Source of the DNA: Gammaproteobacteria bacterium
GTDB taxonomy: Bacteria; Pseudomonadota; Gammaproteobacteria; UBA1113
Direction: 5' to 3'
DNA: 64,000 bases
NCBI GenBank assembly: GCA_021773305.1
Contig: JAJFKH010000104.1
Coordinates: 1,172 to 65,171 of the forward strand
Of this stretch, positions 1 through 6,000 are shown piece by piece; position 1 is the first letter of the stretch, and each line of letters begins with the position of its first letter. Position numbers: made by a program.

Positions 1-3000
1 GCCTCATTACATTGTTATTGTTATACCACGCGACTCAATGACGCGGTAAAGCGTTCGCGTTAGATCCTGCTCTGCTGGCAAAGCGCACTGCCACACGCAT
101 CAGTCTGTGGCAGTGCGCTTACTTCACCAAGTGAAAGCGAGGAAATAAAGCGGCTCGTTCAAGTACAGCATACTCAATATTTTCTCCAGATGAAAGTAGT
201 CAATTTTCACTATAAGCAACACCGTGCAGGTTGTAGACATTCAACCGTCACCGTACCTCTATCCAATCTATACTCATAATGGCTAATTCTAAATTTTTTT
301 CTGAATATCAAACACCAATACACTTGAAAAATTAAACCCTCCAACCCATTGGGTCGCTGCCACCTGAAAGCTTTCCGGTAAAGCCAATACTTCTCCCCTA
401 AATGTCACCCCAAGAAAGTGATCGTGACAACTGTATCTTAAAATCATCATGTCATCTAAAGCTCCCTCTTCGGCAAGCTTAATCAAGCCAACGGCATCAC
501 CATCAGAAATATCTGTAGGCCTTAAGCGAGCAAATTTAGCCAGTTGCCCCGGTATCATCTCACCGGCTCTAATCAGCTCAAGCATCGAACCATCTTCTGA
601 TTTTACTTCAAACACAATCAAAGATGCTTGAGAATTATTAAATAAAGCAACATTTAATCCCGTACAGTGGCTAGCCAAGGCTACACAAGGAAAAAACAAT
701 AAACTAAAAATCAATCTATACATAAAAACCTCTCTTCAAAAAAATAACATCCGAAATGGCAGGTTCTCCTGTTTTAGCATCGGCAGTTTCAACAATCAAG
801 TTTTGTGTTGCCTGATAGCGTTGATAGCAATGGCTATGTCCACAATAAACCTGAAGCTGAATGTTGGGATGTTGTAATGCAAAATTCCGTAAAACATCTC
901 CTGTTGCTTTGCTTGCAAAATAAGGGAGTGCATTATCATCACTAGGTTGATTGTGATGCCAACTGGACTGAGGAAAGGGTGGCACATGAGTTAATACGAT
1001 AATTTTTTCACAATCGGTAACGCTATTGAGTTTGTTCTCTAATAGCTTGCCATCTTGATCCGCATACCACTGCATTTTTTTTAATAAAGAATCTCGCCCC
1101 TGTTGAAGAGCCACAACATAATCTGCAATATACCGACTATCTAACAACGAAAGAAAACTATTTTCATAATCACCATAGCGACCATCAGCCCAACCATCAA
1201 CACCGAGAAGTGCAACGTTATCATCCAGCAACACATGGTCAACTTCATTCATCCACACTAACTTAATATGTTGTTGACACAACGCTCTGACTTCTTCGCA
1301 CACAGAGTTGACCTCCCGATGAAAATAGTCATGATTACCCAAGACAAAGTAAATATTTTTATTACAGTAACTTAATAATTCTTTTAATCGATGTGTCAAT
1401 GTTAAACCATCAGCAATGTCGCCGGTTAAGAAAATAGCATCTGCCTGACTTTGATAAATTTTTTCGTAAAATGTTTTTCTAGCGAGTTCTGATGGTACAT
1501 CAAGATGAGTATCACTGATCCAGCAAATTTTTAGTGATGCCATTGTTGCACCTCCCAGTTATCGTTAGACTCTGTCATCACAACAGCTACAATAAAATCA
1601 TCCTTGGGTGAAAAACTATAAATACTCCAGTCATGACTTGCTTCAGGATGCCCTACTACAGAAATAATTTTTGCAGGCTCTTTCGGTAACAAACTCACTT
1701 CGCAATCTTTTAATGGAAAGTGTAAACCCACTCCTAGTGCTTTTAACAATGCTTCTTTGCGAGTCCAACCTTGAAAGAAAGCTAGTTGCTGATCGGTTAA
1801 TGACACACTTTCAAGAGCTGCACTTTCTTTTGGTGAAAAATAGCGTCGAGCAATATCTAAGGCTTTTAATTCTTTTTTCACATACTCTACATCAACGCCC
1901 ACTTCACAGGTATCGGTTACAGCCAGCACCGCTATATCACCCGAATGAGAAAGGTTAAACCTTAATGAAGTTGCATGCCGCTTAGGATCTACATGAGGTT
2001 TCCCATGCTCACCATACTGAAAGTAGACATTTTCAGGCGCACAATCAAGATAATCAGCCAGTATCTGCCGCAAACCATATCGGGCAAGAATAAAGCTTCT
2101 TTGATGCTCAGGATAAACAAATCGTCTCGCCCGTTGCAATTCAGCTTCAGATAATATTTTCTCAAATTGATCTACCATAGACGTCTCTGCAAGCAAAGAA
2201 AACCACCAGATTTTACAGCTATGTCTCTGTTTTTGAACCATAATCAACCAAACTCATACTGCTAGGGACTAGCAATTGACAAAAATATTTCCTAAACTTA
2301 GTATTGAATCATAACATTCAATCTATGGCTAGGAGTACACAATGTCTAACAAGAAAGAAGCATTACCCAAGATTCGCCCTGTGATTGCTGCAATTGGTAC
2401 CGGTGTCGCTATTAGCCTATCGTCCATTGCTGTTGCAAACGCAGATCCGAACCCTTTTTCAATTACCCCAATGGCTTCAGGTTATAATCTGGTCAGCACG
2501 CATATGGATGACTCCATGTCTAATGGTGCTGCCACAGATGCTGCTAAAAAAGGCGGTAATGGCATTGTTTGCGGTGCTGAAATGCATAAAAATGGTAATG
2601 GCACCTGTGGTGCTAATATGGATAAATCTACCGATCCCAGTAGCACCGAAGTGAGAAAAGGCACTGATGGTAAATGTGGTGCCGGTAAATGCGATGCCAA
2701 TATGAGAAAAGGTGCTGATGGTAAATGCGGTGCCAATATGAAAAAAGGTGCTGAAGGTAAATGTGGTGCCAACATGAAAAAAGGTGCCAATGCTAGCTAA
2801 GCATAGGTTACCACTGACAAATGAAAAACCTTGGCAAGGTTCGGGGCTGGGTTATCGCCCTCCCCTGAGCCGCGCGCTACTGCAACATTTACCTTCAGAA
2901 ATTGATTTTTTAGAACTTGCTCCCGAAAATTGGATCCACGTAGGGGGCAGACGAGCAAAAGATTTACAAATCTTAGCAGAACATTATCCAATAATTTGTC

Positions 3001-6000
3001 ATGGATTATCTCTTTCCATTGGTGGCCCGGCACCCCTCGACCAAAAGTTATTGAAGCAAATTAAAGAATTTTTACGACAATTTAATGTTCCCTGTTACAG
3101 TGAGCATCTAAGCTATTCGAATGATGGTCATCAGCTTTATGATTTGCTTCCTATTCCATTCACAGAAGAAGCTGTTTTTTATGTTGTCGATAGAATCAAA
3201 CAAACTCAGGATTTTTTAGAGCGTAATATCGCCCTAGAGAATGTTTCTTACTATTGCGCCCCCAGCAATGAATTAACAGAATTGGAGTTCATTACGGCGG
3301 TTTTAGCAGAATCTCAGTGTGAATTACTTTTGGATGTTAATAATATATATGTTAATAGCATCAACCATGGCTATGATCCAACAATTTTTTTAGAAAAACT
3401 TCAAGGATCAAACGTTGCATATATTCATATTGCAGGCCATGAAAAGATAAAATATAATTTAGCCATCGACACCCATGGCGCAAGGATAATTGATCCAGTA
3501 TGGGTGCTGCTCAAACAAGCTTACCTTCAATTTGGCCCTCTCCCCACATTACTTGAGCGAGACTCTGACATTCCTCCCTTGGAAAATTTACTCGAAGAAA
3601 TAGCCCAAGTAAAGGCCTTACAAGACAGTCAACGAGCTATCACCCATGCCTAACCCAAAAGTTCCTGAATTTCTACAAATTGAAAAAGAATTTGCTGCTT
3701 ATTTACGGGATCCAGAAAATAACCCCAAGCCCTCAGCCATTGATGCGGAACAAATTAATATTTATCAATCTCTCATTTTCAATAATATCAGTGAAATGTT
3801 AGCAAACTGCTTCCCTGTTATTTTTTCTATTTTGGAAGGCTTGCAGTGGCAACAGCTCATTCGTGCATTTTTATCAGAGCACCAAGCGGTACGACCTTTG
3901 TTTGTTGAGCTGCCCCTAGAATTTTTAACCTTCCTTGAAATACGTCATCCTTCTGAGAAGGACTATCCATTTCTCTTAGAGCTTGCCCATTACGAATGGA
4001 TTGAATTGGAATTGGATATCGCAGAAGAAAAAGCGCCGCCCCATCCTCTCCTTGATAAGGGTAATTATCTCACCGGCATTCCTCAAATGTCGCCTTTCGT
4101 TCGCATTTTGCACTATCAACACCCGGTGCAAAAGATAGGCAAAGATTACTTGCCTTCTAAACCATCTCCTGTACATCTTATCGTTTACCGCGATCAAAAT
4201 GAGAATATAAAGTTCTTCGAAACCAATGCAGCCTCCGCTAGACTTTTAGAACTTTTGTCCACAGAGCCTGGCATGGAGGGACAAGCCGCTTTAAAACAAA
4301 TCGCTGAAGAACTCCATCACCCCAAACCCGAAGCTATCATCAGCTTTGGCCAAGATATGCTTCAACAATTCCTAGAATTGGGTATCATTATTGGCGTTCG
4401 TGCTTAGTCTTGCTATTATAGGCGCTCTAAATCATACCAAGCGGATAACAACTTGAGCACAAAACACTCACGTCCATTCCTTAAATGGGCGGGCGGTAAA
4501 TACCGGCTTTTGCCAAAAATACTAGAAATCCTACCAAAAGGTAAACGTCTGGTAGAGCCTTTTGTGGGCGCAGGCTCGGTATTTCTTAATGCTGACTTCC
4601 AGCAAAGTTTACTCTCCGATTGCAATAAAGATCTCATCTCTCTTTATCAAACCTTGCAACAACATGGGCAAAAGTTTATTGATGATGCTAAGAGTTTTTT
4701 TGTACCCGAAAACCACAATTCAGATCAATACTATAAACTACGAGATCAATTCAACCGCTCATCTGACCCCTACAAACGAGCCTGCTTATTTACTTACCTT
4801 AATCGCCATGGCTACAATGGACTGTGTCGTTATAATTCAAAAGGCATCTTCAATGTTCCCTTTGGAAAATACAAAACCATACCATTTCCTGAAGACGCGA
4901 TGATTAATTTCTATGAAAAATCACAACAGGCAGAATTTATTTGCGCGGACTTTGAAACCGTCATGAAACAAACAAAGAAAAATGACATTATTTATTGCGA
5001 TCCGCCGTACGCGCCGCTTGATGGCTTCCCTTCATTTACAAAATACCAAGCTCAAGCGTTTAATTTTGACGAACAAGTAAGACTCACTGAAATAAGCAAA
5101 ATGATGGCAAAGAAACATCGAAAAATTCTTATTTCAAATCATGATACAGCATTTACTCGAGAACTGTACCAAGGTTCTAAAATTCAACACTTTGATGTGA
5201 TGCGACTGATTAGCTACAATGGCGAAAGAAAATATGCTAAGGAGTTATTAGCCTATTTTGATGAAACTTAAAAATTCCTTGAACTTGTTTTTCTAAAGTA
5301 AAAACTGGATTATTTTCTGGAATATTGATAGCCATTTTACTTTATTCTCCATTATAGTATAGCCCCCTTAGGGGGGCTATTGATATTGCTCGTTAAATCA
5401 AATTCTTTTCTTTAACAGTGTCTCGCTCACTGCAAAGCTCTTCCAGAGTCATTTGTAAGCGCTCATCCCCATAGGTGTTATGCTCTAAACCTTTTACAAC
5501 CTTAAGCTCACCTTGCTCTACACGACATGGATAAGAATAAATTAAGCCTTCATCCACACCGTATTCCCCTTGTGAACATTTTGCAATAGAAAATGATTCA
5601 CCCTCTAGTGTATCATTGATTACGCTATGAACACTGGATACAATGGAGTTTGCCGCAGATGCCGCAGAAGATGCACCACGTGCTTTAATAATTGCAGCAC
5701 CTCTTTGTTGAACTTGAGGTATAAAATCATTCTTTAGCCAATTCTCATCATCAATCACACTGACCGCAGAGGTTCCATTGATTTTTGCATGGTAGAAATC
5801 CGGATACTGTGTCGCCGAATGATTGCCCCAGATTGTCATTTCCGTCACAGCTGAAATATCAACACCCGCTTTACTGGCCAACTGATAACGAGCGCGTTTT
5901 TCATCTAATGCTGTCATTGCAAAAAATCTATCATTAGGTACATCCGGAGCATTATTCATCGCAATTAAACAATTTGTATTACAAGGATTTCCTACAACCA

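Follow-up and report, generated by a model that had tools for sequence, protein, structure and literature searches.

The stretch of DNA analyzed here, hereafter the window, spans 64,000 nucleotides of contig JAJFKH010000104.1 (positions 1,172 to 65,171, assembly GCA_021773305.1) from a gammaproteobacterium of the UBA1113 lineage. At 2276-4407 it harbors three + strand open reading frames (ORFs) in the order hvfA-hvfB-hvfC, identified by ORF calling and by reading of the sequence. They code for a cysteine-rich precursor peptide, an MNIO-type iron oxidase and a DUF2063 partner protein, the constituents of a biosynthetic system for metallophores of the RiPP type (peptides synthesized on the ribosome and then modified post-translationally). 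Both gene junctions overlap. With the hvfA stop codon TAA at 2798-2800, hvfB begins inside hvfA, either by 11 nt at the in-frame ATG at 2790, yielding a protein of 287 residues, or by 17 nt at the alternative start GTG at 2784, yielding 289 residues. Likewise, the hvfC ATG at 3646 is located within the hvfB stop (ATGCCTAA), an overlap of 8 nt. These overlaps make translational coupling plausible, and they fit the original prediction, derived from reading the DNA without database searches, of three translationally coupled genes. The GC content of the cluster (41.6%) is close to that of the window (41.2%), which therefore gives no sign of recent transfer.

To assign the family, all three proteins were compared with the curated NCBIfam models and their cut-offs and searched against Pfam profiles. 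The precursor reaches 23.5 bits on NF050137 ("HvfA family ... RiPP metallophore", cut-off 19.5), ORF2 387.4 bits on the HvfB equivalog model NF003818 (cut-off 360) and ORF3 269.8 bits on the HvfC model NF050145 (cut-off 142). Pfam places ORF2 in DUF692 (PF05114, 5.5e-102) and ORF3 in DUF2063 (PF09836 and PF22106), as had been anticipated, and none of the outcomes named beforehand as counting against the prediction, such as a failure of these two proteins to match DUF692 and DUF2063, occurred. The locus thus combines the precursor motif, a predicted signal peptide, an HvfB-type MNIO, an HvfC-type partner and adjacency on one strand. The features of related systems are lacking. For Buf1/BufABCD, the precursor yields no Pfam match and is therefore not a DUF2282 (PF10048) peptide, and ORF2 scores 273.1 bits on the BufB model NF050167, below its cut-off of 310. 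For the Buf2 "Cys-Lys" type, the precursor contains no Cys-Lys, and the MNIO carries Ser, not Asp, at the position equivalent to Phe250 of FonB, the MNIO of Fontimonas. For MbnABC, ORF2 stays far below the cut-off of the MbnB model TIGR04159 (47.1 versus 325 bits), ORF3 finds no MbnC match among the NCBIfam models and the precursor bears a Sec signal. Because all three proteins exceed the curated HvfA-family, HvfB and HvfC cut-offs, the locus very probably represents an hvfABC operon, complete with its three genes, that belongs to the class referred to as oxazolin, Buf_EGKCG or Lys-Cys "captophorin". The cluster had originally been described as a RiPP metallophore cluster of the bufferin/methanobactin type, which is right for the class of system; the precise family is hvfABC, and neither Buf1 nor methanobactin. 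Such systems have been characterized biochemically since 2024 and are now named automatically by NCBI models, hence this is not a new class. The features of the locus are compiled in Table 1.

Table 1 Features of the hvfABC operon, its precursor and its flanks, in window positions
Feature	Position	Strand	Details
hvfA	2342-2800	+	152 aa; HvfA-family (Buf_EGKCG / Lys-Cys captophorin) precursor; NF050137 match
hvfB	2790-3653	+	MNIO (DUF692) iron oxidase; 287 aa from ATG 2790; NF003818 and PF05114
hvfC	3646-4407	+	253 aa; DUF2063 partner with C-terminal NGO1945_C (RiPP-recognition-type) domain
Sec signal peptide of HvfA	2342-2443	+	Residues 1-34; predicted cut between A-N-A and D; heuristic n/h/c-region analysis
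Leader motif N-P-F-x6-S-G-Y	2450-2485	+	Residues 37-48; conserved in relatives
Six-Cys core	2570-2797	+	Cys residues 77, 89, 112, 117, 129, 141
36-nt (12-codon) tandem repeat	2684-2787	+	2.9 copies, 92% matches, score 173; Tandem Repeats Finder
Sigma-70-like promoter candidate	2276-2304	+	TTGACA-17-TAGTAT; 10/12 positions; best match in 1500-5400
Perfect 7-6-7 inverted repeat	2303-2322		ATTGAAT-CATAAC-ATTCAAT; overlaps the -10 hexamer as well as the likely start site
Shine-Dalgarno AGGAG	2331-2335	+	6 nt 5' of the hvfA ATG; read from the sequence
hvfC-dam gap	4408-4452		45 nt; doxX stands here in the syntenic locus L073; no terminator-like site
Dam-family adenine methyltransferase	4453-5271		Starts 45 nt past hvfC
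Sfp/HetI-type 4'-phosphopantetheinyl transferase (PPTase)	1531-2247	-	Divergent from hvfA
Metallophosphoesterase	716-1543	-	Overlaps the PPTase gene
144-aa ORF	289-723	-	Overlaps the metallophosphoesterase gene; signal-like N-terminus; no family match

For comparison, scanning genomes with HvfB yielded 69 related loci (50-61% identity), to which look-ups of precursor homologs added L070-L077; counts over 73 loci refer to L001-L073. The closest locus, on a 6-kb Logan contig, is 68% identical, and a look-up of the exact HvfC sequence gave no record. A Cys-repeat ORF lies directly 5' of HvfB in 65 of the 73 loci, and the upstream ORF follows the same plan in nearly all of them, namely a signal peptide, an xPF-x(5-9)-G-Y segment and then (E/D)GKCG repeats, as in the window.

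The precursor HvfA had been predicted to carry a Sec signal peptide, and this is borne out by heuristic region analysis. A positively charged n-region (MSNKKEALPKIR, net charge +3) precedes a 19-residue h-region with a mean Kyte-Doolittle hydropathy of 1.9 and a c-region with small residues at -3 and -1. In an alignment with 13 relatives, the Ala at -1 of the cleavage site and Gly19 of the h-region are invariant. The predicted mature peptide comprises 118 residues and is hydrophilic (mean hydropathy -0.79), without a membrane anchor. Just past the signal peptide, the same alignment reveals Phe39, Gly47 and Tyr48 of the leader motif to be invariant and Pro38 to be almost so, and 51 of the 65 precursors from related loci possess an xPF-x(5-9)-G-Y segment. 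The NPF-x6-SGY segment is probably the docking site for HvfC.

The core of HvfA contains six Cys in the contexts V-C-GAEM (Cys77), T-C-GANM (Cys89), K-C-GAGK (Cys112), K-C-DANM (Cys117) and K-C-GANM (Cys129 and Cys141). A Met is located at +4 after all of them except Cys112, Lys precedes four of the six, and Cys-Lys does not occur at any. The pattern K/T-C-G/D-A-x-M proposed earlier accordingly stands for five of the six Cys by our count, with Cys112 lacking the Met, and is loosened further by Val preceding Cys77. The canonical double motif G-K-C-G-A-G-K-C is present once, all remaining sites being single motifs. Twelve residues separate each of the three C-terminal Cys from the next within a module K-C-G-A-N-M-K-K-G-A-x-G, and it is these last three Cys modules that the 36-nt tandem repeat encodes (as G-K-C-G-A-N-M-K-K-G-A-x); the repeats foreseen at this site were recovered by Tandem Repeats Finder, and a separate repeat search agrees. 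The 3' repeat modules share 79-91% identity at the DNA level and are in frame, a likeness that suggests recent in-frame duplication.

How common is the Met-bearing module? Any Cys with Met at +4 is found in five of 65 genome-derived precursors, and HvfA of the window is the only one to carry it at most sites. Among 70 sequence relatives of HvfA, mostly metagenomic, 33 contain at least one C-G-x-x-M and 15 at least three, indicating that the Met module is recurrent but confined to a minority. The closest database relative of HvfA is 43-50% identical, and an exhaustive search of 1.84 billion representatives returned 63 relatives at E<=1e-3, with a best identity of 50%. The main text of PMC12452194 contains neither "methionine" nor "Met residues", methionine is not discussed in the main texts of the two family surveys checked for the word, and neither the HvfA sequence nor its motif occurs in the supplements of PMC13097082 or PMC12452194. 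The suggestion of an uncharacterized precursor variant therefore needs to be divided: the Met-bearing 12-residue module is unstudied, and the peptide as a whole lies inside a known family.

In addition to its DUF692 profile match, HvfB aligns with the DUF692 structure PDB 3BWW (1.3e-72). Its motifs cHG, sEH, lEN, lDvNN, HiAGH, DtH and ERD align with those of 3BWW and MbnB, and the metal-ligand and catalytic motifs are invariant across 40 relatives. Differences occur at positions linked to substrate choice. Arg16 and Phe250 of FonB were reported to govern substrate selection (PMC13097082), and from the flanking motifs G-L-G-x-R-R and E-R-D-F we infer that these correspond to Pro24 and Ser259 of HvfB (numbered from ATG 2790). 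Here Pro replaces Arg, Ser replaces Phe and the next residue is Asp260 instead of Asn, compared with Arg in 68, Phe in 65 and Asn in 70 of the 73 HvfBs. Pro at the first position and Asp at the third are exclusive to the window, and Ser or Thr at the Phe250 equivalent was detected in the window, L070 and L073 only. Co-variation of Met-rich cores with the Phe-to-Ser exchange was considered and rejected, as the HvfB encoded beside a Met-rich precursor in L075 retains Arg-Arg and Asp-Phe. For the HvfBs beside Met-rich precursors in L074 and L076, a motif search read only Asp-Phe in the former and only Arg-Arg in the latter, both being canonical. Separately, the precursors of L004 (2295-2612) and L010 (2239-2568) bear E-G-K-C-A/S repeats, with Ala or Ser after Cys, and the HvfBs of both loci have Leu at the Phe250 equivalent, a possible case of enzyme-substrate co-variation. 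HvfC is further related to PDB 3DEE (NGO1945; 3.9e-08).

A DoxX gene is adjacent to hvfC in nine of the 73 related loci, is found elsewhere in the flank in 19 and is not in the flank in 45; its absence from the window is therefore ordinary. By tblastn across the 64-kb window, nothing credible was found for DoxX, an ECF (extracytoplasmic function) sigma factor or an anti-sigma factor, nor for a doxX remnant, a second MNIO or a second DUF2063 protein. The original prediction, which had listed no DoxX and no sigma/anti-sigma gene in the operon, was thus correct well beyond the operon itself, and the layout is common and not anomalous. In line with this, RiPP, MNIO, DUF2063 and DoxX genes were described to occur "in various combinations" (PMC12452194), so that DoxX, frequent as it is, is no defining gene of the family. 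Gene order in the window equals that of L073 minus doxX: there, a PPTase gene is divergent from hvfABC-doxX-dam, and in L070 metallophosphoesterase and PPTase genes are divergent from hvfABC. The GC content of L070, L073 and the window is ~40-41%; together with synteny, it allows no more than a guess at a Legionellales-like lineage. A functional link to the divergent PPTase was considered; since the arrangement is kept in L070 and L073 and unmatched in more distant loci, we treat it as lineage synteny. What sets this locus apart as a mildly interesting natural variant is its Met-bearing module, together with the Cys-Asp site, the altered pocket of HvfB and the missing DoxX.

Upstream of hvfA, a strong sigma70-like promoter and an operator-like palindrome had been proposed, with metal-responsive control as a consequence. 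The promoter site exists and is the best one nearby, yet ten promoter-like matches in 1500-5400 equal the expectation from shuffled sequence (10.0 +/- 3.7), i.e. such matches arise at chance rate in this AT-rich DNA. A segment conserved with L070, TATTTCCTA(A/G)ACTTA(G/A)TATTGAA(T/A)CATA, takes in spacer sequence, the -10 hexamer and the palindrome's left arm, and neither the -35 hexamer nor the right arm shares this conservation. The inverted repeat is likewise present and perfect, and is close to what chance would provide: among simulated 94-nt regions matched in composition, 6.1% contain a perfect repeat with 7-nt arms, and 101 such repeats occur in the window versus 72 +/- 8 expected. No comparable inverted repeat was found upstream in L070, L071 and L073, and the window contains no second copy of the palindrome. 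An operator for a known metal regulator was considered and found unconvincing on the best matches obtained to consensus sequences (Fur 11/19, Zur 14/23, CopY 5/8, CueR-type dyad 8/12, sigma-E-type promoter 6/11). Metal-responsive control of the hvf promoter is plausible by analogy with other members and finds no support in the window. In other members of the family, L071 contains an ECF sigma/anti-sigma pair adjoining hvfA (2523-3367) and L077 a zf-HC2 anti-sigma gene (8-226). Such neighbors suggest that regulation of the hvf family varies by lineage, the window having neither.

The expected chemistry follows from characterized relatives. In nontypeable Haemophilus influenzae (NTHi), the hvf operon encodes HvfA, HvfB, HvfC and a DoxX protein, and HvfBC modifies six Cys in AEGKCGEGKCG repeats to give the Cu(I)-binding product oxazolin (PMC11252979). 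For the hvf family, an initial assignment of the modification to oxazolone/thioamide (the original prediction for the present locus had named oxazolone/thiooxazole-thioamide ligands) was revised by two groups to 5-thiooxazole in 2025-2026 (PMC13097082; bioRxiv 10.64898/2026.06.05.730506). Formation of the active cofactor, a mixed-valent diiron cluster, requires the presence of HvfC (bioRxiv 10.64898/2026.07.17.739211). One survey lists ~2,000 "Buf_EGKCG/oxazolin" precursors (PMC12452194), and the Mitchell group, who named the class captophorins, counts >20,000 such clusters in RefSeq (PMC13097082). The window locus is a Lys-Cys member of the captophorins.

By analogy with NTHi HvfABC, Fontimonas FonABC, Neisseria NgoABC and Caulobacter BufABC, the following sequence of events can be proposed (PMC11252979; PMC13097082; PMC11626156; PMC12452194; bioRxiv 10.64898/2026.06.05.730506, 10.64898/2026.07.17.739211). 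HvfA would be synthesized in the cytoplasm and bound by HvfC, probably at the NPF-x6-SGY segment, with HvfC also activating HvfB by way of the diiron(II/III) state. HvfB, a TIM barrel with a mixed-valent diiron center, would then use O2 for a four-electron oxidation of the Cys in x-Cys-Gly to 5-thiooxazole prior to export, each heterocycle being expected to cause a mass shift of -4 Da and an absorbance near 305 nm. The peptide would subsequently be exported via Sec and cut after Ala34 by signal peptidase I, leaving a hydrophilic product of ~118 residues, in which pairs of thiooxazoles may bind Cu(I), ~2-3 Cu per peptide. Its most likely role would be periplasmic buffering of excess copper. We further infer that the Met at +4 could supply thioether ligands.

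Comparison with the NTHi system underlines both the relationship and the peculiarities of the window locus. A Sec-signal precursor with six Cys, G-K-C-G motifs and the A-B-C gene order on one strand are shared with NTHi hvfA-hvfB-hvfC(-hvfX). In contrast, the window lacks DoxX (HvfX), and its precursor is longer (152 versus 95 residues), contains a single K-C-G-x-G-K-C double motif in place of the three AEGKCGEGKCG units, adds the module of 12 residues with one Cys and a Met at +4, and has the NPF...SGY leader where NTHi HvfA has a disulfide-bearing N-region. With the fontiphorin (FonABC) and gonophorin (NgoABC) systems it has in common the MNIO-PME1 pair and the Lys-Cys-Gly target (PMC13097082) and, by expectation, 5-thiooxazoles and Cu(I) binding. 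The surveyed Buf_EGKCG/oxazolin loci likewise combine RiPP, MNIO and DUF2063 genes with signal peptides, mostly in Pseudomonadota (PMC12452194), whereas the peptide here has 12-residue repeats with one motif each. Buf1 (DUF2282) and Buf2 (BUF_6/12Cys) systems with BufBCD resemble it in their Sec-exported precursor and MNIO plus DUF2063 proteins, and in 5-thiooxazole chemistry and periplasmic copper buffering, both of which are expected here (PMC11626156); unlike them, the window encodes a precursor outside DUF2282 with Lys-Cys, not Cys-Lys, and an MNIO under the BufB cut-off. Methanobactin biosynthesis (MbnABC) shares the conversion of Cys in a ribosomal peptide into copper ligands by an enzyme of the MNIO superfamily, and differs by a leader peptide that is not a signal peptide, by oxazolone/thioamide groups and by a function in copper acquisition.

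Several observations weigh against the assignment to hvfABC as a copper-buffering system, or against its simplest form. The match of the precursor to NF050137 is confined to a single stretch, residues 123-143, and its score is low compared with the 32-62 bits of typical relatives. Ten relatives span 14.8-62 bits, with L070 at 20.7, P0008 at 23.0 and P0070 at 14.8, the latter under the cut-off; judged by these scores, the window precursor is a peripheral member of the HvfA family. The strict HvfA equivalog model NF050188 is unmatched by it at E<=0.01, and the cut-off of that model, 95 bits, is reached by none of the ten relatives. No copper-responsive regulator was found in the window, nor a recognizable operator upstream of the operon. 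At the level of the product, FonBC leaves Cys unprocessed when a charged residue follows and prefers small residues there (PMC13097082). Modification of Cys117 is doubtful because it is followed by Asp, and this Cys may escape, so that five sites are expected to be modified and one is in doubt. The altered pocket residues of HvfB mean that site usage could differ as well. Finally, the class as a whole has no settled physiological role, the proposals being detoxification of copper, its acquisition and the invasion of hosts.

This last point bears on a reading in which biosynthesis is the same and the product is released, acting as a copper-scavenging chalkophore or host-interaction factor rather than as a periplasmic buffer. 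HvfA of NTHi was found as a secreted virulence factor, for which the authors raised a chalkophore role as one option and proposed epithelial-cell invasion (PMC11252979), and the mature peptide of the window is long, very hydrophilic and without an anchor. A weak hint at host association can be seen in the ~40-41% GC content of the closest loci and in a eukaryote-type kinase encoded 3.4 kb 5' of hvfA in L073. Nevertheless, we regard release as unlikely, given that bufferins build up in the periplasm and confer protection from an excess of copper (PMC11626156), that fontiphorin and gonophorin data favor sequestration (PMC13097082), and that neither a TonB-dependent receptor nor MbnT/MbnE-like uptake genes nor an outer-membrane export gene were found beside the operon. 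It is distinctly improbable that HvfBC installs another modification or uses other residues, be it oxazolone/thioamide formation or partial processing. The D-S-D in place of the usual D-F-N by the catalytic Asp, Arg-Pro replacing the Arg-Arg pair, two of six Cys following Val or Thr rather than Lys and one preceding Asp point in this direction. Yet the FonB variants R15A, R16A, F250A and F250D still gave 5-thiooxazole and only their substrate tolerance shifted (PMC13097082), the metal ligands and catalytic Asp of HvfB are intact, and all characterized MNIO-DUF2063 pairs yield 5-thiooxazole.

The same low probability applies to a different soft metal (Ag, Au, Cd or Hg) taking the place of copper as the main target, or to a peptide serving mainly against oxidative or thiol stress. 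Every characterized member of the class binds Cu(I), bufA reporters of C. vibrioides answer to Cu and not to Fe, Zn or Mn (PMC11626156), and no mer, sil or czc genes were detected among the scanned ORFs of the window. In favor of such targets, gold and cadmium as well as copper induce related "gig" operons (PMC11626156), a link between the hvf operon and oxidative stress has been drawn (PMC11252979), and Met together with thiolate-type ligands would by general coordination chemistry suit Ag(I) and Au(I) too. A silent or decaying relic, neither expressed nor functional and left behind once doxX and a dedicated regulator had been lost, seems a very improbable reading of the operon: three intact ORFs, a Shine-Dalgarno sequence, overlapping stop and start codons, invariant catalytic motifs and repeat modules that are in frame argue for a working system, and the lack of DoxX is shared with 45 of the 73 related loci. 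Set against this are the presence of doxX in the syntenic L073 and not here, the lack of an adjacent regulator and a precursor barely above its family cut-off. We therefore retain a functional hvfABC operon with 5-thiooxazole chemistry and periplasmic copper buffering as the preferred reading.

Several periplasmic proteins, including CusF, CopC and PcoC, bind Cu(I) through Met-rich sites. It is possible, if rather doubtful, that the K-C-G-A-N-M-K-K-G-A-x-G module defines an uncharacterized subtype that combines a heterocycle with a Met thioether at +4 and is made by the remodeled HvfB pocket. Such a peptide could form mixed thiolate/N/thioether Cu(I) sites, maybe with another affinity, stoichiometry or metal selectivity than EGKCGEGKCG peptides, and the pocket (Arg to Pro, Phe-Asn to Ser-Asp) might accept Val-Cys, Thr-Cys and perhaps Cys-Asp. 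Should the Met residues take part in copper binding, or the altered pocket of HvfB admit more substrates, the locus would offer a convenient natural variant in which to dissect the choice and retention of metals by thiooxazole peptides and cysteine selection by MNIOs. For annotation, the genes are best named hvfA-family precursor, hvfB and hvfC, with 5-thiooxazole rather than oxazolone/thioamide as the expected modification. The operon moreover provides a compact DoxX-less example from a gammaproteobacterial lineage of ~41% GC that is sparse in databases.

Downstream of the operon, the dam gene may receive partial read-through from the hvf promoter; a promoter-like match is located at 4391-4419, near the end of hvfC. 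The remainder of the window, as scanned, is ordinary chromosome in which no metal-related genes were seen, with no rRNA and tRNA-Phe (18656-18731) as the only tRNA gene. Next to the latter, 19458-19934 (-) encodes a protein of 158 residues that bears a PAAR-like toxin domain, and no other secretion-system genes were seen nearby. Unassigned proteins include ORFs without Pfam match at 51461-52681 (406 aa), 55452-56186 (244 aa) and 56354-57151 (265 aa), as well as a 1005-aa ORF, equally without Pfam match, at 57105-60122 (-). Five consecutive + strand ORFs without Pfam match (154-442 aa; 28808-32835) come after a DUF4143/AAA_14 ATPase gene (27018-28157), and the region 27018-32835 may represent a small island of unassigned function. 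A putative conjugative helicase/nickase of the TraI_2 type (40710-42113) stands alone amid the housekeeping genes mlaA, a SpoU methylase gene, an amino-acid permease gene, gpsA and secB, and may be the remnant of a mobile element.

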